From NCBI GenBank assembly GCA_963704705.1, contig OY969931.1, forward strand, positions 150,001-182,000: DNA of 32,000 nucleotides. Reading direction: 5' to 3'. This DNA comes from an uncultured bacterium. GTDB lineage: Bacteria; Patescibacteriota; Gracilibacteria; UBA1369; PNNO01. Position numbers and translations under genes: made by a program. Below the pieces are notes generated by a model. That model made no database searches. It saw only the letters and a program-made list of their open reading frames with translations, and had not been told where the DNA came from. Below, piece by piece: positions 4,896 through 17,700 of the stretch; the first letter of the stretch is position 1; the number at the start of each line of letters is the position of its first letter.

Positions 4896-5516
4896 TTAAT
4901 TAGCCTTTCGGGCAATCTCTTCATGCATTCGCTTAACTGTAGCTTCAAGTCTTTGAACTATTGGATTGTTGAGTAGCTTTTGAAGTTCCTGTAGCACTTG
5001 TTCATAGTACCAAATCACGTTTTCTCTTCGAGGCTCAGGTGCGTTAAATATTTCCCACATTGATTCGCCTTCCTGTTTATATTTTTCTATGATCGTTTCT
5101 AGATTGTGGATTTTATCAGCAGCACACACCATGAGCGCTGCTTTAGAAGCTGATTTTAGGTGATCAACATACGCCTGTTTGCGTTCTTTCCATACCGCAC
5201 GTTTTTCTTCCTTGGTTTTTTTATGTTCACCGTCCTGATGAGTGACATGATTTACAATATCAGCTATTCTGGTACTAAAATCCTGAGCCATATCTTCATA
5301 ATTGTAACCTTCAACATCTTCCAGCACATCATGTAAAAACCCAGCTGAAATAATATCTTCATCATCAGTATATTCTGCCAAAATTCGTGCAACAGCATCC
5401 GGATGCGTGAAATAAGGTGTTTTGCTCCCTTTTCTAACCTGGTCGGAATGTTTTTCTTTGGCAAAATCGTGCGCTTTTTTTGTTTTTGGTGTTAGTTCCA
5501 TATTTTTATTGTTCAT
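4896..5516 (-). CDS. RSH-type HD-domain (p)ppGpp-like pyrophosphohydrolase, i.e. small alarmone hydrolase (SAH)
   Basis: AHDFAKEKHSDQVRKGSKTPYFTHPDAVARIL...ISAGFLHDVLEDV...IADIVNHVT...LMVCAADKIHNL follows the SpoT/Mesh1 hydrolase motif order H..R..PY..HP..VA / HD..ED / AD+.HN. There is no synthetase, TGS or ACT region. The alternative start Met6 (ATG 5501) lies 4 nt after the upstream stop. Confidence 0.85.
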   Translation of the reverse strand: MNNKNMELTPKTKKAHDFAKEKHSDQVRKGSKTPYFTHPDAVARILAEYTDDEDIISAGFLHDVLEDVEGYNYEDMAQDFSTRIADIVNHVTHQDGEHKKTKEEKRAVWKERKQAYVDHLKSASKAALMVCAADKIHNLETIIEKYKQEGESMWEIFNAPEPRRENVIWYYEQVLQELQKLLNNPIVQRLEATVKRMHEEIARKAN

Positions 5517-5760
5517 TCATAGCATTTACCATTCTTTCGAATTCATCTTTTTCAATTTTTTGACCTTCACTCATAAACAGTTCATCACTAGGATAACCTA
5601 CTTCCCATTCACCATTGTCTTTTAAGCCATATCTGGTCGATCCACGTCCGTCTTCGGTATATACTTCTTTAACAGGAACACCATTTACATTAAAGTAATA
5701 AGTTTGTCCTGCATCTCGTTCGCATTCTTCTTCATACGATAGTGGTTCATTCATTTCCAT
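5506..5760 (-). CDS. Small strongly acidic protein (candidate immunity/antitoxin)
   Basis: 84 aa. Hand count gives 21 D/E versus 8 K/R. It lies 33 nt downstream of the giant gene, and its stop overlaps or abuts the SAH start. I recognise no family. Confidence 0.6.
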   Translation of the reverse strand: MEMNEPLSYEEECERDAGQTYYFNVNGVPVKEVYTEDGRGSTRYGLKDNGEWEVGYPSDELFMSEGQKIEKDEFERMVNAMNEQ

Positions 5761-5793
5761 ATTTGTTAAGTTAAAATTAAATTATATATATAA

Positions 5794-8700
5794 TTATTTC
5801 AATTTTACACGCTTTTTATACATCTCCCAAGCTGCTTCATTTATTTTTTGTTGAGATCGATTTAATTTCTTTTTAAAATAAAATAATTCTTCAGCTTTTG
5901 CCCTTTTTACCGGATTTTTTATTCCAGCAATTTGTTCAGGAGATCTGTCTGGAATAGACCTCCAAAGTTCATAAAATGTATGTGTTTGAAATTCAGTACC
6001 TGTTGGGAGTTTTAATTTTCCTTCTTTACCAATCCTTTTAGCAATTTCAGCAGCAAGCTCATGCTCTCTTTGTGAAAATTTTAATTTCCCTTTTAATGAA
6101 GGGATATTCATCCCTTGTTCTTTAACCTTAAGCATTTCAGAAATATGGAATTGTAATTCAGCTACTCTTCCATCTTTAAATTTAATGCTTATATTCATAT
6201 CTCTATATTGTGCAGGATGTTCGTTAGGTTTAAGTGGATCACCAAAGTTGTCTTTAATAAATATTTTAGCTACTTTAGGGTGCCTTTTAAGTGCCTCAAC
6301 AGCATGTCTAATTTGTGGAAGTGTACCATATTCCAATGATCCTCTAGCTATATCTAATAACTTTGACGCATTACCATTATACTCACCAGGATCTAAAGCT
6401 TTTTCCATTGTTCTTCCTATTTTTTTAACTGGTGCCTGATGATTACCGGTTTGATGACTTCCGTCTCCAATTAAATCTACACCTTCTTCCACAGGTTTAA
6501 CTTTCCCTGCAATATCATTCATTAAAGAGTCGAGCATATCTTTGGTTCCTTTTCGTTTTCCAAGTCTTACAATTTCCATATAATTTTCAAAAGCTTTGAA
6601 ATTAGCTTCATTTATTTTCGGATTAGTATTTGCAATCCCAAGTCTTTTTAATTGTGTTGGATTTTTTCGTATTGCTTGTAATTCTGCATATGAAGCATTT
6701 GCTAATCCAGGAGCTTTGCTTAAAAGCATTTCTTTCCCATGAATTTTAGCTTTTGTAGATTGAGATAATTTTTGTATTTTTACTGCTTCAGCCTGAACTT
6801 TTTGAACATATTTAATGTATGCATCAAACCTTTTTAATGCAGCTGGACTTGATAATCCTATTTTTTTTAACTTACCAGGACTATTTCTAAGTTTTACAAG
6901 TACCTCAATTGGCTTTTGAAGATCAGGCATTTTTGCGAGTGTTTGTTCAACACCGTTAATCCTTTTGGTAAATTGCTCAGCTATTCCATGATTTGTTACA
7001 TTTGGTTGATTAAATTTATCTAAACTAATTACAGCTTTATCTACTAGGTATTCTGCTTGTGTTTTATATATTTGTTTTTCACCCTTATAATTATATGCAA
7101 TAAGGCTTCCATCAGCATTTGTTTTTACAATCTGAAAAGCAGCTTCTTTTATATAATCCGTCATTTTTTCATAATATTGTACTTTTCCTTTTGTATTGTA
7201 AGCTAAAATTCCATGTTTATTTTTGTGCAGTAATGTATATGCAATTTCTTGTCTTTTACTTCGAGGGACTTGGTTTGTTTTATTAAATTCTGTTGCCAAT
7301 GCTTCCATGCTTGGCCTTTTCATAGTTCTTAAATTTATGCCTTGGCTTTCAGCAAGCTTTGCAATACTTCTTGATCCTTCTTTAGGAGCAACCTTTACCA
7401 ATGCTAAAGGCGTACCTACTACACCCGATACGACACTTATAGATAATATACCAAGATCTCTTAAATCTTTTGGAAGTAATTTTCCTAACTTAGGGTGTTC
7501 TTTTTTAAATTTTTCATATTTCCCATTATAATTATTCATAAATACTTGGAATGCATGTTTGATTGAGTTATTTTTTAAATATCCTTTAATTTTATCTTTT
7601 TTGTTTTTTAAAAAGTCTTCTGCATTTTTATATAATTTTGAACCTTCCCTTAAAGCTTGCATTCTTTTTTTAATCAATTCTTTTGAAAATAAAATACTTT
7701 CTACCGGTATTGAATTTATAATTTTTTTTGCTGTTTCTTCGGAAATCCCAAATTTTTTCAATTTGCCAATTAAAGAAGACTGAAGACTTTGTGCATTTTT
7801 AGTTATATGCCCATTTTGTTTAATAGATTCTCTTATTAACACAATGTATCCCGCATAAGCCGGATCTTCTGTTAACTCTTTGATGCCTGCAATTTGCTTA
7901 GCTGACAAACCTGCATATAATTCGATTTTATCAGGAGTAATTTTTTTATCACTCAGCATTTCGTTTAGAAGTTTTGCTTTTCCTCTTGTAATGGGATTTA
8001 CATCGCCTTGCATTTTGGCGATTTCTGCCTTTAATTGTGCTTTTTTTTCCCAATTACCAAATAATTTTCTAAATTTAGCACCCCCGAAGTGATATAGAGG
8101 CATTTGAGCTAAATTATTTATAAATGATGTATTACTAAAATAACTCATGACACCCGCAGATCCAGCCATATGAATAGCATTTGGAAATAAATTTTGAGTT
8201 AATTTTTGAAATTTGGAAAGCTCTGCAGGTGGAATTTTTCTAAACATTCTAGTAAATTTTGCAAGGGGATTTAATGCCATCCCAACAATCTTCATTGATC
8301 CAAGAAAGGTGAATGAATGTTTTACACCTTTAAAAGTAAATCTTTTCATCATTTCATTTAAACCTCCACCCTGGTCAGCAACCTGTAGTCCTGTCATCAA
8401 TGCTTCAAATGCCGGAGCCTCTACTGCCAAGCCCGCAGTTTCTGCAACTAATTTTGTAGTTAGATTTCTTATCAATCCCTGTTCTGCAAAACTTGCCAAC
8501 CTGCTAGTAACAAACGTTGTTGCCCCTCTTCCTAAAAAACCGGCTAAGCCGCCTGAAGCAACTATAAATAAAGCCTGCTTCAAACCATCATCATTTTTAG
8601 GCAGACGTAATTCCCCGGGTATATACTCCCCGTTTTCGTTGGTTATTGATTTAATTAAATCTTTAATTTCTTTTGCTTTTCCTTTTGTATACAAAACCTG

Positions 8701-10758
8701 CTTTACTTTTTTCATCATCAAAGCGTTCACGGAGTTATAATTTTTCATAAAACCTTTTTTCTCATCTAGTGTGCCTCTCATGATATCCAGCCAATCAGAA
8801 TTTTTATGCCATTTTCTTAACATTTTAGTTGTTTCACCTCGTTTTACTCCCGATAAAAATGCTTGTGAAGCATGTGTCCAATAATTTGGCACGGATGCAT
8901 TAATAAAATTATCTCCTCTTTGTATTTGTTTAGTTGTTGCATTTCTGCCGCGTAGCAATTTAAGTGCTTCATCCTCAAATAAATCTTTTCTTTTTTTATC
9001 ATTTTCAACTTCGGTTAATGTAACAATTCTTCTTACTAAATTATCGAAATTAAAATTATTTTTACTTCCCATATCTGCATCAACTTCTTGACCTAAATCA
9101 AGCTTATCAAATGCATCATGTAAAGAATTGGCTTTTCCTTTATTAATTAAATTTCTTAATTTATTAATTATTTTATAAGCGCCGAAATTTTTTCTTTTCT
9201 CAGGTTTCATCGGAACATTATTTATAACATTTTCCGCCATATTTAATATGCCTATTGAAGCCTTTTTTAAGCCTTCATTGCATTTTTCTTTTAATTCCAA
9301 ATATCCTTTATCCATCTGAACTTTGGCCCTTACATTTTTAAGTGGACTTCTTTTAATTTCGTCAGATTTTCTTGAAGAACTGTTTTGTAAATAATGACCA
9401 CCTTCGGAAAAACCCGCCTGATTTAGATATTTTTTAAAATGCGCATAGGCATTTATATAATCCTGGTTTTGCAAATCAACTTCTGCTCTGTAGTAATCTT
9501 TTTTAATAGGATCTTCTTTTGGATCTTCAATTTGTTTTTCAAATTTAAGCCTTTTAAAAATTTCCATATGATTATTTAATAATCCATTCAGAATACTGAT
9601 TTTCTGCATACCTTTTCCTTTTTTAAATAAAATGGTTGGAAAAAATTTATCTTTTGGATTATTTGGATTTTCTTTAAAGAAAAGACCGTACTGAGTATAA
9701 TTTTCTTCTATTGCAGCTTTCATTAATGGTCTATCTTCTTCTGGTAATAAATCCAATTGAGGATTTTTATAAAAGGTTTTTACTTGCACTAGCATTTTTG
9801 CGACCTGAACATCTAATATTTCTTCATTAAGCGAGTCAGGATATTTTTTTTCTTTTGAAACATTTTCATAATTATTGAATTCATCTATCACTAGATTAGA
9901 TTCAACTGATTTTTGTATTTCTCTGGCTTTATAATTTTTATTTTCAATCTCTTTTAATAAATCCATCCAATTTACTTTATTCTTTCCCTTTTTTAAAACA
10001 AGTTTGAAATTGGTAAATGAAGTTGGAGGCTCGTCCGGGATATCAGGGTTAATTTGTACAGGAACATCGCTTTTATCACCTGTTGTAGCCATCGAATATA
10101 TATGATCATCTTTATACTTATTTTCCATTTCATCAAATACAACTTTAAATTCAGATAACTTAACATTTCCGTTGCTATCAACACCGGTTACATAATTTGG
10201 ACCTTTAAGCCCGTGTATTACAGTTCCTGACTTGAAAAACATATTGAATTTTCCTTCAAGCAAAGATACTTCCAAAATGTCTTCCTTGATTTTTAAAGCG
10301 AGATCAGGGTGGAGCTTATCGATATTATTCTTTTTAGAAAAATTTTCGTAAAGTTTTTTAGCTTTTCCAAATTTTCTTTCCTTGACCAGTTTTTGTGTTT
10401 CCACTTCTTTTTTAAGCAACTCAACTTCAAAATATTCTTTTTGCTTTATTAGTAATTTTTCATACAATTTACCTGTTCTTTCATTTAATGAAGCATTTAA
10501 TTTTTCGCCCTCTTTGGCACTTACTTTTTTGTCCTTTAAAATTTCATTCATCAAATCCTGCGTGCCCCCCAGATATTGATCCATATCTGTTTCCCACCCT
10601 GGATAATTATTTTTTTTAATAAATTCTGTGGCCAGCTTTTGATATTTTGAAAGCATTTGTTTTGTTTCTTTGTATTTTTCCCATTTGGGAAAATTTTCAC
10701 CTAATTTATCTAATGCTGCTTTATCAACTACTTTTTTTGCATTTTCAAATACTTTCAT
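5794..10758 (-). CDS. Giant 1,654-aa protein with a C-terminal RelA/SpoT-like (toxSAS-like) nucleotidyl/pyrophosphotransferase domain
   Basis: An uninterrupted 4.96-kb ORF in AT-rich DNA. No N-terminal signal peptide (MKVFENAKKVVDKAALDK). Central Gly/Ala-rich hydrophobic block at aa ~727-895. Internal repeats at aa ~1183-1247 and ~1287-1400. RSH core motifs occupy the last ~190 aa. Confidence refers to a real CDS; I would put the functional call at about 0.55. Confidence 0.9.
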   Translation of the reverse strand: MKVFENAKKVVDKAALDKLGENFPKWEKYKETKQMLSKYQKLATEFIKKNNYPGWETDMDQYLGGTQDLMNEILKDKKVSAKEGEKLNASLNERTGKLYEKLLIKQKEYFEVELLKKEVETQKLVKERKFGKAKKLYENFSKKNNIDKLHPDLALKIKEDILEVSLLEGKFNMFFKSGTVIHGLKGPNYVTGVDSNGNVKLSEFKVVFDEMENKYKDDHIYSMATTGDKSDVPVQINPDIPDEPPTSFTNFKLVLKKGKNKVNWMDLLKEIENKNYKAREIQKSVESNLVIDEFNNYENVSKEKKYPDSLNEEILDVQVAKMLVQVKTFYKNPQLDLLPEEDRPLMKAAIEENYTQYGLFFKENPNNPKDKFFPTILFKKGKGMQKISILNGLLNNHMEIFKRLKFEKQIEDPKEDPIKKDYYRAEVDLQNQDYINAYAHFKKYLNQAGFSEGGHYLQNSSSRKSDEIKRSPLKNVRAKVQMDKGYLELKEKCNEGLKKASIGILNMAENVINNVPMKPEKRKNFGAYKIINKLRNLINKGKANSLHDAFDKLDLGQEVDADMGSKNNFNFDNLVRRIVTLTEVENDKKRKDLFEDEALKLLRGRNATTKQIQRGDNFINASVPNYWTHASQAFLSGVKRGETTKMLRKWHKNSDWLDIMRGTLDEKKGFMKNYNSVNALMMKKVKQVLYTKGKAKEIKDLIKSITNENGEYIPGELRLPKNDDGLKQALFIVASGGLAGFLGRGATTFVTSRLASFAEQGLIRNLTTKLVAETAGLAVEAPAFEALMTGLQVADQGGGLNEMMKRFTFKGVKHSFTFLGSMKIVGMALNPLAKFTRMFRKIPPAELSKFQKLTQNLFPNAIHMAGSAGVMSYFSNTSFINNLAQMPLYHFGGAKFRKLFGNWEKKAQLKAEIAKMQGDVNPITRGKAKLLNEMLSDKKITPDKIELYAGLSAKQIAGIKELTEDPAYAGYIVLIRESIKQNGHITKNAQSLQSSLIGKLKKFGISEETAKKIINSIPVESILFSKELIKKRMQALREGSKLYKNAEDFLKNKKDKIKGYLKNNSIKHAFQVFMNNYNGKYEKFKKEHPKLGKLLPKDLRDLGILSISVVSGVVGTPLALVKVAPKEGSRSIAKLAESQGINLRTMKRPSMEALATEFNKTNQVPRSKRQEIAYTLLHKNKHGILAYNTKGKVQYYEKMTDYIKEAAFQIVKTNADGSLIAYNYKGEKQIYKTQAEYLVDKAVISLDKFNQPNVTNHGIAEQFTKRINGVEQTLAKMPDLQKPIEVLVKLRNSPGKLKKIGLSSPAALKRFDAYIKYVQKVQAEAVKIQKLSQSTKAKIHGKEMLLSKAPGLANASYAELQAIRKNPTQLKRLGIANTNPKINEANFKAFENYMEIVRLGKRKGTKDMLDSLMNDIAGKVKPVEEGVDLIGDGSHQTGNHQAPVKKIGRTMEKALDPGEYNGNASKLLDIARGSLEYGTLPQIRHAVEALKRHPKVAKIFIKDNFGDPLKPNEHPAQYRDMNISIKFKDGRVAELQFHISEMLKVKEQGMNIPSLKGKLKFSQREHELAAEIAKRIGKEGKLKLPTGTEFQTHTFYELWRSIPDRSPEQIAGIKNPVKRAKAEELFYFKKKLNRSQQKINEAAWEMYKKRVKLK
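5959..6429 (-). other. RSH synthetase-like domain within the giant CDS (aa ~1444-1600)
   Basis: Ordered motifs: LLDIARGSLEY (Asp1469, nt 6352..6354); IKDNFGDPLKPNEHPAQYRDMNISI (nt 6193..6255), compared with the canonical KDYIA.PK.NGY.S.H; GRVAELQFHISEM (Glu1534, nt 6157..6159), compared with the canonical EIQIRT..M. Confidence 0.55.
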
Positions 10759-11083
10759 TATTTTTTATTTTTGATATAAATTTTTTACTATAACTTTTAA
10801 ATTTTTTTTGAAACTTATCAGTTAAATTATGCTTTGCCATAATTACAATTTTTTTATCATTTTCTTTTTGAATTATGTCTTTAAAATATTCATAAGTCTT
10901 CTTAATAAGAGAATTATTCGCGTTCTCAATAAATAATTTCCATTCATTTTTTTCATTTTCAGAAAGGAAATCAACGTAATTAATAAGCTGGATTAATTTT
11001 TGTTTTGTGATTTTTGTTTTCGGCATAATCTGAGCATAATATATCGTAATATTATACATCAAAAATCGTTTAAAATAAAGCAA
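10745..11083 (-). CDS. Small K/N-rich hypothetical protein at the head of the giant-gene module; true start probably ATG 11026 (93 aa)
   Basis: The track ORF begins at a TTG (11083..11081). An in-frame ATG at 11026 (MPKTKITKQKL...) lies downstream of a TATAAT at 11056..11051 (minus strand). The stop TGA 10745..10747 overlaps the giant gene's ATG (10758..10756) by 14 nt. Confidence 0.5.
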   Translation of the reverse strand: MLYFKRFLMYNITIYYAQIMPKTKITKQKLIQLINYVDFLSENEKNEWKLFIENANNSLIKKTYEYFKDIIQKENDKKIVIMAKHNLTDKFQKKFKSYSKKFISKIKNNESI

Positions 11084-12716: not shown

Positions 12717-13667
12717 TTACCTAACCCTCATCAAGCTTGCTTTACACTTTTCTCCCTCATCAGCTACTTTAATTGTGCCTTCTTCGGTATATTCAATGAT
12801 TATATGATCAGCTGATATATCAGATGATTTTTCAGGATCAAACCAATGAAATTTAGGATTGGCTTCAAGTTTTTTAATGGCAATTTCAAGCGTTTCAACC
12901 TTAGATTGAGCTAATTTAACTTTTTCATCTGCAATCATTGTTTCTTGGGAAACAGTACTGATTCTATTTTGTATATTAAACTCGCTTCTGGCTTTATTCA
13001 GCACTTCATTGGCTTTTTTAAGTTTTTCTTTTGCCATTTTAAGCAATCTTGTATCAGCCTGACCAATTGAATATTCTTCACCCGTTTCTATTTCAATTAT
13101 TAATTTTCTTCCTATTTCAGAATCCGCAGTTGAACACCAAACTATTAATTTCTCCTCTTTTCTTTCAATATTAAGAATGTGATTTTTTTCTTCTCCTTCT
13201 CTTTCAATTTCGATTTTAAGTTGCTGACATTCGCCGATTGTTATTGGTTTTTCTTTTTTTAGTTTAATTGTTTGCCCTACCCGAATTATTGATATTTCTT
13301 CCATTGCTTTTTCAACTTTTTGTGAACTTTGTGTTTGAACTTTGCCTACTGATTTAAGAATATTTGCTAAATCAACAAATAACCTTTCAGCAAAATTTCT
13401 GATTCCGGAAAAGCGATCTAATATTGAGCCTGCTTCACTTTTAAATAAATCAAGTGCGGTTTGTTTGCTATAATTCCCCTTAACATAATTCATAATTGGA
13501 TTAATCACATAATAAATTCCAAGAAGTTTTTTGATTAGTTCAGAATTTATTTCTTCTTCAACAGGGACTTTGACTTGCATCATCTCGCCATATATCTCCT
13601 TTTCTTTCAATCCTTCAACTAAAGTATCAGGTTCGATCTCTGGGTTTATTGATTCTTTTGTGCTCAT
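12717..13667 (-). CDS. Hypothetical protein with a coiled-coil region; possible degenerate FHA-like C-terminus
   Basis: 316-aa ORF in a clean gap between pckA and ppdK. Coiled-coil-like stretch KLKKANEVLNKARSEF...KVKLAQSKVETLEIAIKKLE. The C-terminal ISADHIIIEYTEEGTIKVADEGEKC loosely fits the FHA pattern S..H......G....D.G. Confidence 0.6.
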   Translation of the reverse strand: MSTKESINPEIEPDTLVEGLKEKEIYGEMMQVKVPVEEEINSELIKKLLGIYYVINPIMNYVKGNYSKQTALDLFKSEAGSILDRFSGIRNFAERLFVDLANILKSVGKVQTQSSQKVEKAMEEISIIRVGQTIKLKKEKPITIGECQQLKIEIEREGEEKNHILNIERKEEKLIVWCSTADSEIGRKLIIEIETGEEYSIGQADTRLLKMAKEKLKKANEVLNKARSEFNIQNRISTVSQETMIADEKVKLAQSKVETLEIAIKKLEANPKFHWFDPEKSSDISADHIIIEYTEEGTIKVADEGEKCKASLMRVR

Positions 13668-16905: not shown

Positions 16906-17700
16906 ATGACAAAAATAAAAATGTTTAAAGAAAAAAGATTAATCCATTTTAGTGGAGGACCTGAATTTAAGGGTACTACTGATCCGGAACCTTATAAGGA
17001 CGAACGTGCTAACTTAAATCTTAAACAACCTGAAAAGAAACTAACTTTAGAAAAGACTTTTAATCGAGATGCATTAAAAAAATATGTTGAAGGCAAGATT
17101 GACAGAACAAATTCAGATCAATTAAAGAAATTACAAGAAAAAATTAAGAAAAAAGGCTGGTCGCAGGATATAAATGATGATTTTTGTAAGAATGTACTTG
17201 GTTTGAAAATCGAAGGCAGAAGCAAGGAGCAAATTAACATCATTATCAAAGGATTTCAGCAAGAAATAAAAACCAGATTTCCCAAAGCCGCAGATCTGAA
17301 AGTTGATGGAAAATTTGGTAAAAAATTCGCTGAAGCTTTGTTAGCCATGGATGAAGTTGAAAATAGTGTATATTATCCAATTGACGACATTATTTTTGTA
17401 TCTGTAGAAGACATGTTTGGGAAAGTGGATGTAAATAAAGTATCAAAATGTGGTAAGATTAAAGATAAAGCAAAAAGAAACGAGTTCTTTTGGAAAAGTG
17501 TTCTAGGATTAGAAATGCCAAATGGAAATCCAAAAGAGCAGGCTAAATCTATAAAAGATAATGTTAAACAATTACAGAACTACATGAAATATAAATCGGG
17601 TAAAAGTATTGATGCTGACGGACAAGTTGGCCCTCAAACTTTGGATGCTTTTGCTAAATTGGTAAAACCTGCCGTAGAATTTAACGACGGTTTATTCTAA
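16906..17700 (+). CDS. Protein with two peptidoglycan-binding-like (PG_binding_1-type) repeats, no signal peptide
   Basis: Internal duplication: FCKNVLGLKIEG..KEQ...IKGFQQEIK...LKVDGKFGKKFAEALLAM versus FWKSVLGLEMPNG..KEQ...VKQLQNYMK...IDADGQVGPQTLDAFAKL. The DG.(F/V)G....(A/D)A(L/F) pattern resembles PG_binding_1. Confidence 0.55.
   Translation: MTKIKMFKEKRLIHFSGGPEFKGTTDPEPYKDERANLNLKQPEKKLTLEKTFNRDALKKYVEGKIDRTNSDQLKKLQEKIKKKGWSQDINDDFCKNVLGLKIEGRSKEQINIIIKGFQQEIKTRFPKAADLKVDGKFGKKFAEALLAMDEVENSVYYPIDDIIFVSVEDMFGKVDVNKVSKCGKIKDKAKRNEFFWKSVLGLEMPNGNPKEQAKSIKDNVKQLQNYMKYKSGKSIDADGQVGPQTLDAFAKLVKPAVEFNDGLF

Follow-up and report, generated by a model that had tools for sequence, protein, structure and literature searches.

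What does a bacterium gain from a giant protein that ends in a synthetase-like domain and is followed by an acidic protein and a small alarmone hydrolase? In the 32,000-nucleotide stretch of DNA analyzed here (the window), from an uncultivated bacterium of Patescibacteria type with a small genome, this arrangement comprises four close-set ORFs on the minus strand, for which the original prediction had proposed a toxSAS-like warhead on a delivery body with two antidotes. A small basic ORF (10745..11083, minus strand; 112 amino acids from a TTG) overlaps the start of the giant ORF (5794..10758, minus; 1,654 amino acids) by 14 nucleotides. A 33-nucleotide gap separates the giant from the acidic 84-amino-acid ORF (5506..5760, minus), which overlaps the 206-amino-acid hydrolase ORF (4896..5516, minus) by 11 nucleotides, or lies 4 nucleotides from it if the hydrolase starts at Met6 (nucleotide 5501; 201 amino acids). 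These coordinates and boundaries, as originally claimed, were all reproduced by ORF calling and a check of the spacing. The giant's start codon is backed by an N-terminus conserved across its family, and the hydrolase at a related locus, L001, begins at the position equivalent to Met6. For the upstream ORF, the family alignment favors an internal MPKTK start, so that Met20 (nucleotide 11026) is likely the true start of a 93-amino-acid protein.

Judged by sequence, profile and predicted fold, the C-terminal head of the giant (5797..6489, minus), which consists of a core at amino acids 1424-1608 and a C-terminal helix to amino acid 1654, belongs, as an RSH synthetase domain, to the toxin-type Tas1/Apk1 clade (toxSYNTH) and is homologous to (p)ppApp-synthetase toxins. 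A phmmer search of the PDB returned Tas1 (6ox6) as the sole match (5.5e-4), and a profile of two RSH heads again found Tas1 only (4.1e-5). Alignment by hhalign to a 29-sequence Tas1 family gave a probability of 98.7% (E 2.7e-16) over 156 columns at 30% identity. The head keeps ten residues (K1445, K1453, D1469, R1472, Y1518, E1534, Q1536, Y1596, E1597 and R1600), acidic and basic catalytic positions included, that are invariant in a 31-sequence alignment of the 29 Tas1-family sequences and the two RSH heads. For an AF2 model (pLDDT 81.5), biased towards the Tas1 fold by its use of the Tas1-family alignment, Foldseek placed Tas1 first (9.5e-6), followed exclusively by SAS, RelP, SaEAS and FaRel2 synthetases. 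Tas1/Apk1, from the T6SS of Pseudomonas aeruginosa, is thus the closest detectable relative by all three approaches; the head departs from Tas1 by QYRD in place of the GYSG motif, by two insertions and by its long C-terminal helix. The synthetase motifs noticed earlier at this C-terminus are therefore real, but they lie below Pfam detection, with no match to RelA_SpoT (PF04607) even at E=10. Because Tas1-family proteins have no precomputed Pfam match either, the missing match is uninformative.

The other Pfam model proposed for this locus, HD_4, does match the 206-amino-acid protein (1.6e-20), which was correctly called an RSH-type HD hydrolase. It also matches the N-terminal hydrolase part of TIGR00691 (1.4e-24), and its best PDB relatives are the RelH-type hydrolases 7qoc (2.3e-31) and 7qoe (4.5e-28), with both of which it aligns end to end. 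It shares HD_4 and the H...HD...D motifs with RelH/Mesh1-type small alarmone hydrolases; unlike them, it moves within a swappable cassette together with a synthetase head of toxin type. A composition count of the 84-amino-acid protein agreed with the reported acidity (21 D/E versus 8 K/R; pI 4.2), and its only matches are weak ones to beta-hairpin repeats of the choline/glucan-binding-like kind. We consider it a candidate cognate binding inhibitor (immunity protein or antitoxin) of the RSH head. The head is basic (pI 9.9), and the pairing of a basic head with an acidic partner is a point in favor of an effector and its inhibitor; the lack of sequence similarity to Tis1, the Tas1 immunity protein, or to any known antitoxin counts against an effector.

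In Cellulomonas marina, the toxic RSH FaRel has an adjacent hydrolase antitoxin, ATfaRel, and a Tis1-like antitoxin, AT2faRel (PMC11782079). The present cassette follows the same double-antidote logic, with a hydrolase and a separate candidate binding antitoxin. However, FaRel is a small stand-alone toxin in a toxin-antitoxin operon, with its antitoxins on either side, whereas here the synthetase forms the last ~230 amino acids of a polymorphic protein of 1,654 amino acids, with the two candidate antidotes encoded downstream. The Tas1/Apk1-Tis1 locus is similar in placing a C-terminal enzymatic head on a larger carrier, followed by a small cognate gene, but it has no linked hydrolase, and its carrier is of the PAAR/T6SS kind, none of which was detected on the giant.

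L001 is the only other known carrier of an RSH head. As anticipated, the triad of giant, small protein and hydrolase is syntenic there, and it is conserved although the flank is rearranged; with two RSH-headed members (n=2) from closely related genomes, this conservation is weak evidence. Between the two loci, identity is 63% for the head (53% for a longer, 329-amino-acid stretch reaching into the linker), 58% for the small protein (82 amino acids in L001, at the same position), 76% for the same-position hydrolase and 84% for the neighboring PckA, and the head and small protein diverge faster than the adjoining housekeeping genes. A remnant, in which a degenerate RSH-like head has a binding or structural role within a large protein of the surface or adhesion kind and sits beside the hydrolase by chance, would fit the change of the family-typical GYSG and the large surface proteins common in related CPR lineages. 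We find it very improbable, as both RSH-headed members keep the ten invariant residues, and the rearrangement of the flank has not separated the hydrolase and small ORF from the head.

The remainder of the giant belongs to a very rare, previously undescribed family. When amino acids 1-1200 were used for an exhaustive phmmer search of 1.84 billion representatives, 19 proteins matched, most of them 1,556-2,284 amino acids long and collinear with the query; the named members are Patescibacteria/Peregrinibacteria. The body of ~1,440 amino acids proposed earlier has to be shortened: the conserved part (amino acids 1-1125; 7384..10758, minus), delimited by the family search and alignments, stops at about amino acid 1,125. 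It is lysine-rich, with a conserved N-terminus and a Gly/Ala-rich hydrophobic core at approximately amino acids 728-900, and has no match in Pfam, NCBIfam, PADLOC, PHROG or PDB. Near its end lies a junction motif, AF..F......G.Y..F...HP.LGK.LP.DL, found in 16 family members, and directly after it the giant's sole strongly hydrophobic segment (amino acids 1102-1120; motif and segment together 7393..7494, minus). The 19-mer after the junction has a Kyte-Doolittle value of at least 1.6 in 10 of the 16 members and is weak in six; this degeneracy counts against an effector or toxin. Past the junction, sequences differ between members. The head-specific linker (amino acids 1126-1423; 6490..7383, minus) resembles only that of P0022, the other RSH-headed member (33% identity), belongs to no Pfam family and contains a short internal repeat (ILAYNTKGKVQYYEKMTDYI / LIAYNYKGEKQIYKTQAEYL). 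The suggestion that the architecture was undescribed thus holds for the carrier family and the lineage that hosts it, where the novelty lies, but not for RSH toxin heads (PMC3482391; PMC12691689) or for a double antidote, already known from FaRel (PMC11782079).

Heads in this family comprise RSH, GGDEF, Ser/Thr kinase (Pkinase), phosphatase+FHA and J-domain (DnaJ-like) types, and an FHA or FHA-like domain forms the C-terminal end of about half of the members. The identity of the downstream gene varies with the type of head. Kinase heads are followed by one common partner family in three of three cases (187, 186 and 187 amino acids; E 1e-31 and 3e-35), GGDEF heads by another, unrelated family in two of two (180 and 170 amino acids; E 4e-10), and both RSH heads by the 84-amino-acid-type protein and the hydrolase. 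The exchange can be seen at orthologous loci: this chromosomal slot is occupied in syntenic relatives by a GGDEF head with its partner (L003) or a kinase head with its partner (L010), and the hydrolase is absent from it. The L010 slot also carries a PckA fragment, possibly a recombination scar. Covariation of partner and head is equally expected for regulator/enzyme pairs. At least three members (P0006, P0012 and P0020) have no same-strand downstream partner, which counts against an effector, as does the fact that the other heads are of signaling type rather than classic killing domains.

These signaling-type heads would also suit a cell-autonomous, non-toxin role. The giant would be the bacterium's own cytoplasmic or membrane-associated scaffold or sensor, and its C-termini would offer alternative outputs, namely synthesis of alarmone or of c-di-GMP, addition or removal of phosphate on Ser/Thr, and recognition of pThr through FHA. 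At this locus the head would supply the cell itself with alarmone, with the hydrolase as off-switch and the 84-amino-acid protein as regulator; a split synthetase/hydrolase pair with a housekeeping role would be one version of this. We regard this as a serious rival, if a somewhat unlikely one. The heads form a typical signal-transduction set, and the several giant paralogs per genome (L002, L008 and L010) could, with their kinase, phosphatase and FHA domains, make one network; the partnerless members, the missing export signals and the chromosomal location, with housekeeping genes on the flanks, also agree with it. On the other hand, the head falls in the toxic or exported Tas1/Apk1 clade and is unrecognized by the housekeeping RelA_SpoT model, and it outpaces the neighboring housekeeping genes together with its small partner. 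A swap of the core stringent response for a GGDEF or kinase head without hydrolase would be unexpected among close syntenic relatives, and the stoichiometric-looking acidic partner and hydrolase mirror FaRel's two antitoxins.

The N-terminus of the giant has no visible hydrophobic h-region, which bears out the predicted lack of a signal peptide. Two further observations count against an effector: the body has no known trafficking, secretion or pre-toxin domain (Pfam, NCBIfam, PADLOC, PDB, PHROG), and no secretion-system genes are adjacent to the cassette. A PilB-like ATPase ~13 kb away is part of the conserved backbone. The conserved body, swappable heads and head-specific downstream genes agree with the proposed warhead on a carrier, but no export signal or trafficking domain was found. 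The lack of export signals would also suit the cytoplasmic location of an anti-phage abortive-infection or toxin-antitoxin module akin to CapRel and FaRel-type toxSAS, in which the body would detect infection or a different insult and set the RSH head free, shutting off metabolism or translation in the producer itself, with the 84-amino-acid protein and hydrolase as antitoxins. Such systems combine enzymes of this family with a hydrolase or a binding protein as antitoxin, and the locus is hypervariable between relatives, like defense islands. This module nonetheless seems improbable to us, as the giant matches no PADLOC defense model, the flanks are housekeeping genes with no defense genes nearby, kinase, GGDEF, J-domain and FHA heads would be atypical effectors for it, and a 1,100-amino-acid conserved body with a small upstream partner is unparalleled among known toxSAS.

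The reading that we favor, with about even confidence, is a polymorphic effector or toxin accompanied by its cognate binding inhibitor and by an enzymatic antidote. The cassette would be one unit of a polymorphic giant-protein system of Patescibacteria with four parts: a translationally coupled upstream basic partner of ~93 amino acids; a conserved carrier body of ~1,125 amino acids ending in the junction motif and hydrophobic segment; a swappable C-terminal enzymatic head, here the Tas1/Apk1-like RSH pyrophosphokinase; and at least one downstream gene specific to the head type. The RSH head may use ATP as the pyrophosphate donor to modify purine nucleotides at the 3' OH, yielding (p)ppApp, (p)ppGpp or both, or, less likely, act on tRNA 3' ends. 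Least securely of all, we infer that the carrier reaches a recipient cell, host or competitor, where the head would drain ATP or force an alarmone response. The producer and its sister cells would be protected by the acidic protein, which may bind and block the basic head, and by the hydrolase, which may break down any alarmone made. In keeping with this reading, the Patescibacteria/Peregrinibacteria group counts epibiotic parasites and predators among its members (PMC8080830).

Apk1-like SYNTH domains are known as modular C-terminal heads on N-terminal carriers, often with a downstream immunity gene; carriers of EAS/RelA-SpoT heads include LXG/T7SS, MuF, Rhs/PAAR, XopAD, DUF4157 and Sec types (PMC12691689; PMC3482391). 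None of these export-associated N-terminal domains is detectable on the giant, which instead represents a new carrier family confined to genomes of Patescibacteria type, with a small partner of its own encoded upstream, and the nuclease, deaminase and peptidase heads of polymorphic toxins contrast with the mainly signaling enzymes found here. Homologs of the upstream ORF (~91-122 amino acids), with a conserved L..I..L...EK.EW motif, align directly 5' of giant genes in L002 (twice), L003 and L006, and the giants of L007, L008, L009 and L010 are preceded by ORFs of similar size; searches of Pfam, PDB and PHROG gave no assignment. In LXG/T7SS loci, a small helical targeting partner (~100 amino acids) precedes a toxin that is conserved in its N-terminal part and variable at the C-terminus, followed by a head-specific downstream gene. 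Although neither the upstream ORF nor the body resembles WXG/LXG/Lap proteins in PDB and Pfam searches, and no T7SS genes were seen in the window, the cassette has a similar gene order.

Four minus-strand ORFs were recovered exactly where the original prediction had placed them: a small upstream ORF at 10745..11083 (112 aa from a TTG start, 93 aa if an internal MPKTK start is used), the giant protein at 5794..10758 (1,654 aa), an acidic small protein at 5506..5760 (84 aa), and a predicted alarmone hydrolase at 4896..5516 (206 aa). The predicted spacing held as well. The upstream ORF overlaps the start of the giant gene by 14 nt, and the hydrolase gene either overlaps the 84-aa ORF by 11 nt or lies 4 nt from it with a start at Met6, the position at which the hydrolase of a relative begins; a 33-nt gap separates the giant gene from the 84-aa ORF. 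For the upstream ORF, the alignment with its relatives indicates that the true start is probably the internal MPKTK, giving a protein of 93 aa. A scan of the window for promoters and terminators gave signal no higher than the shuffled expectation. G+C content falls to 27-28% at 9001-11000, across the upstream ORF and the first third of the gene for the giant, versus 35-40% in the flanking housekeeping genes; Lys/Asn-rich coding may be the cause.

The C-terminal head of the giant resembles a toxin-type alarmone synthetase. A phmmer search of the PDB with the last 249 aa matched one protein, Tas1 (6ox6_A, 5.5e-4), a T6SS (p)ppApp synthetase effector, and the match strengthened to 4.1e-5 with a two-sequence head profile. 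By hhalign, the head alignment scored 98.7% (E 2.7e-16) against 29 Tas1-family sequences, with 30% identity over 156 columns. In the scheme of Ahmad et al. (2025), exported alarmone synthetases join an Apk1-like SYNTH domain to an export-associated N-terminal element; the SYNTH domain is present in the giant, and none of the listed export elements was detected. The Tas1 family had been gathered with a Tas1 segment rebuilt from the phmmer alignment, yielding 58 matches, the best of which bears the name 'T6SS effector (p)ppApp synthetase Tas1'. Pfam RelA_SpoT (PF04607), proposed as a check on the C terminus, was absent from the whole giant and from six pieces of it, even at E=10. Since the Tas1-family proteins themselves lack this annotation in precomputed Pfam (0 of 58; 57 have no Pfam match at all and one has PF24154), the missing match is uninformative and membership is not excluded.

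Every residue invariant across a joint alignment of 31 sequences is kept in the window head (K1445, K1453, D1469, R1472, E1534, Q1536, Y1596, E1597 and R1600), as is the acceptor-loop tyrosine Y1518. The catalytic and substrate motifs are likewise kept (basic P-x-K...K, D-x-A-R, the acceptor-loop Y, E-x-Q and H..YE.WR), the sole departure being QYRD at the GYSG of the family. This retention argues against a degenerate, inactive head, which we regard as highly improbable. An AlphaFold2 model of the head from a Tas1-based alignment reached pLDDT 81.5 and pTM 0.74, and a Foldseek search of the PDB recovered the nucleotidyltransferase-type synthetase fold expected by the original prediction, with Tas1 as best match (9.5e-6) followed exclusively by SAS1, SAS2, RelP, SaEAS and FaRel2, at modest TM-scores (0.3-0.45) and from a model driven by the Tas1-family alignment. 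A single-sequence model (pLDDT 50) was left out of the fold search. We take homology of the head to RSH synthetases of the Tas1/Apk1-like (toxSYNTH) clade as established, on profile and Foldseek evidence although not on PF04607; a pyrophosphokinase activity, with ATP/ADP, GTP/GDP or tRNA as acceptor, is putative.

The 206-aa protein, judged by its domain content, is clearly a small alarmone hydrolase of the HD_4, RelH/Mesh1 type, as its earlier description as an RSH-type HD hydrolase implied. Its matches were to Pfam HD_4 (1.6e-20) and to the hydrolase portion of TIGR00691 (1.4e-24); among solved structures, two RelH-type hydrolases, 7qoc (2.3e-31, residues 8-200) and 7qoe (4.5e-28), aligned with it over its full length. 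The protein carries the HD_4 metal-binding H, HD and D motifs in a single domain of ~200 aa. The 84-aa protein is acidic on recomputation, again as described (21 D/E versus 8 K/R, pI 4.2); the isoelectric point of the head is a basic 9.9. Unlike Tis1-like immunity proteins, the 84-aa protein does not resemble Tis1 (chain B of 6ox6) in sequence: PDB searches with either the single sequence or a two-sequence profile (E<=10) did not return it. Weak matches of the 84-aa protein to choline- and glucan-binding repeats (alternansucrase repeats in the PDB, and Pfam Choline_bind_3 with a sub-threshold 1e-4) were treated as beta-hairpin resemblance.

The remainder of the giant belongs to a rare carrier family. 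With aa 1-1200 as the query, exhaustive phmmer searching found 19 proteins among 1.84 billion cluster representatives, most of them 1,556-2,284 aa long and collinear with the query. It is on this search that the rarity of the family rests; head-seeded searches of genomes and metagenomes were blind to the source itself and say nothing on rarity. A word-index search with the whole giant returned no match beyond the giant itself, and the body had no match in Pfam, NCBIfam, PADLOC, PHROGs or the PDB. Family members carry the names 'Patescibacteria group bacterium', 'Candidatus Peregrinibacteria bacterium' or simply 'bacterium'. The extreme N terminus is conserved (MPFKEAKxI, in the window giant MKVFENAKKV), with several conserved blocks up to ~aa 700 and then a Gly/Ala-rich hydrophobic core at ~aa 728-900. 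The body closes with a junction motif, AF..F......G.Y..F...P.LAK.LP..L (aa ~1072-1100 in the window giant), and a hydrophobic stretch of ~20 aa, past which family members share no related sequence. In the window giant this stretch, at aa 1102-1120, contains the one 19-mer of strong hydrophobicity, and the residues before it are net positive. Given that charge and its place just past the junction, it could act as an N-in/C-out signal-anchor exposing the head; in 6 of 16 members, however, the stretch is degenerate.

Directly before every family member examined lies a short ORF encoding 91-122 aa. On three of the related contigs, L002 (which has two copies), L003 and L006, this ORF aligns with that of the window and shares the motif L..I..L...EK.EW; the window ORF had no credible known-family match in the profile searches (PADLOC, PHROGs, NCBIfam and PDB). 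Only one other protein carries the head of the window giant, an N-terminally truncated sequence from a JGI metagenome (P0022, encoded at L001), with 53% identity over 329 aa. The linker that precedes the head is specific to it and has a short internal repeat at window 7039-7218 (giant aa 1181-1240), ILAYNTKGKVQYYEKMTDYI / LIAYNYKGEKQIYKTQAEYL, of which P0022 has one copy.

Downstream of the junction, the heads are exchanged. Pfam identified FHA, Pkinase, GGDEF and a weak DnaJ domain in the C termini of different members, and one further annotation, metallophosphoesterase, comes from NCBI. An FHA or FHA-like end is present in about half of the members, confirmed by Pfam in one and recognized by eye in the rest. 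A PARP-like 'YHGS' motif spotted by eye in an insertion of P0010, another member, gained no support from PDB sequence searches. The gene that follows covaries with the head. Both RSH heads are followed by an acidic protein of 84 or 82 aa and then the hydrolase, both GGDEF heads by homologous proteins of 180 and 170 aa (E 4e-10), and all three kinase heads by homologous proteins of 187, 186 and 187 aa (E 1e-31 and 3e-35); the GGDEF and kinase partners show no relationship. A same-strand downstream partner is missing from three members: P0006 and P0020 (both phosphatase plus FHA) and P0012 (J-domain).

The triad of giant, acidic protein and hydrolase was found linked again in L001, in line with the synteny anticipated by the original prediction. 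Identities between the two loci are 84% for PckA, 76% for the hydrolase, 63% for the RSH head, 58% for the small protein and 33% for the linker. A full PckA gene follows the triad in L001 and lies upstream of it in the window, so the triad has been held together through rearrangement. Three MAG contigs (L003/L005, L010 and L008) share long-range synteny with the window from the PilB-like ATPase through HTH_17, including, past the giant, GDH and a CTP-transferase-like gene; the main variable part is the position of the giant itself. The locus is a variable slot within a conserved backbone. The gene order of L003 (MAG SW.3.65), PilB-NusA-RecX-RecA-...-GT4-NAD kinase-PPDK-[103 aa][GGDEF giant][180 aa]-GDH-...-HTH_17, is that of the window but with a different cassette and without the hydrolase. 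The equal backbone of L010 carries [97 aa][kinase giant][187 aa] between PckA and GDH. There, full PckA stands before the kinase cassette, and directly after it comes a short second PEPCK_ATP ORF (218 aa, L010:23312-23968), an apparent scar of duplication or recombination beside the slot. A second slot lies beside carbamoyl-phosphate synthase and pyrimidine genes, occupied in L007 by a GGDEF head with its 170-aa partner and in L009 by a phosphatase+FHA head without a same-strand partner. At L002:1393-16834 and L008:3712-15177, two or three [small ORF][giant] modules stand in tandem, so that one genome carries differing heads. One L008 giant is divided into ORFs of 597 and 1,058 aa, which suggests a frameshift or an assembly break.

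A conserved carrier with exchangeable heads and head-specific downstream genes is the signature of polymorphic toxin systems (PMC3482391), and both such toxins and exported alarmone synthetases are known to carry RSH heads (PMC12691689). As in the systems described by Zhang/Aravind 2012, the N-terminal part is conserved while C-terminal domains are exchanged, with RSH, GGDEF or kinase in one slot, and the downstream gene covaries with the head, although its immunity role here is putative. Two features set the giants apart: neither the body nor the upstream ORF has a recognizable trafficking or secretion domain, with no secretion genes adjacent, and most heads of the family are signalling-type enzymes. 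Because this signature is seen in full, with a carrier, a junction and exchangeable heads that have their own downstream genes, all in a hypervariable slot, we favor the giant as a polymorphic effector or toxin with a Tas1-like head, an 84-aa blocker and a hydrolase antidote, a reading to which we give an even chance. The head would consume ATP by pyrophosphorylating purine nucleotides inside a recipient cell, the acidic 84-aa protein would block the basic head, and the hydrolase would clear product arising in the producer.

Such a pairing has a precedent in C. marina FaRel, a toxic RSH with two antitoxins, one a hydrolase and the other a binding protein (PMC11782079). Like FaRel-type toxSAS modules, the window has an adjacent small ORF (84 aa) and an HD_4 hydrolase, both kept in L001, as candidate antitoxins; unlike them, the synthetase is not a small, stand-alone product of a bi- or tricistronic operon but occupies only the last ~230 of the 1,654 residues of the giant. 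A role in abortive infection or as a toxin-antitoxin module appears distinctly improbable, as neither a PADLOC defence model nor a defence context supports it. Delivery would be the weakest link of the effector reading, since we found no signal peptide or known trafficking domain in the giant (Sec signal, LXG, XopAD, MuF, DUF4157 and Rhs/PAAR were all undetected) and no adjacent secretion-system genes. The earlier picture of a toxSAS-like warhead on a delivery body thus gains from the swappable heads with head-specific genes, but not from any export element.

The main rival is a cell-autonomous signalling scaffold, which would account for the predominance of signalling enzymes among the heads, the frequent FHA or FHA-like ends, the several paralogues per genome and the members that lack partners. 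It fits less well with a window head that sides with the toxin-type clade, or with close relatives in which the slot holds unrelated heads and the hydrolase is lost, and we consider it possible but rather doubtful. A Patescibacteria-specific effector system, in which an epibiont introduces signalling enzymes into the bacterium it lives on, with reprogramming and not mere killing as the outcome, seems to us unlikely, if worth stating. Its export route would be marked by the conserved N terminus and the coupled ~100-aa partner, its payloads would include alarmone synthetase, diguanylate cyclase, Ser/Thr kinase or phosphatase with FHA, and J-domain, and the producer would be kept safe by head-specific inhibitors and, in the window, also by the hydrolase.

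The hydrolase, the concept of an RSH toxin head and the double antidote are all known, so the original claim of an undescribed architecture does not extend to them. What appears new is the carrier family (a ~1,125-aa body to which an upstream partner of ~100 aa is coupled), its confinement to genomes of the Patescibacteria type, and a head repertoire that makes or reads bacterial signals; a limited literature search, not aimed at the family itself, found no published description of it.

Much of bacterial diversity falls within the Patescibacteria, most of which live on other cells, and to our knowledge almost nothing is known of the proteins they use on their hosts. The locus offers a concrete, testable candidate for such proteins, a modular giant family with exchangeable Tas1-like synthetase (with two putative antidotes), diguanylate cyclase and kinase heads. 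If the heads are delivered, the range of RSH toxins extends to a new phylum-level lineage and a new carrier, and epibionts may rewire the second-messenger signalling of their hosts; if they are not, the family represents an unusual self-signalling architecture in reduced genomes. Whichever reading is true, the small size of the head, of the 84-aa protein and of the hydrolase makes them accessible to toxicity, rescue and nucleotide-profiling experiments.

The other genes of the window (PilB-like ATPase, DprA, RecA/RecX, NusA, Mur ligase, PPDK, PckA and GDH) fit a small-genome CPR-type bacterium; the source contig is 1.37 Mb with ~35% GC. A 316-aa ORF between PPDK and PckA (12717-13667) gave no family match, and an FHA-like C terminus suspected in it by eye had no similarity to the FHA-like end of a family member. 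The sole tRNA gene of the window is tRNA-Asp (GTC) at 631-707. The 264-aa protein encoded at 16906-17700 ends in a peptidoglycan-binding domain and weakly matches an endolysin-like PHROG, and at the corresponding spot beside PPDK in L008 is a 281-aa ORF with a faint PG_binding_3 match.
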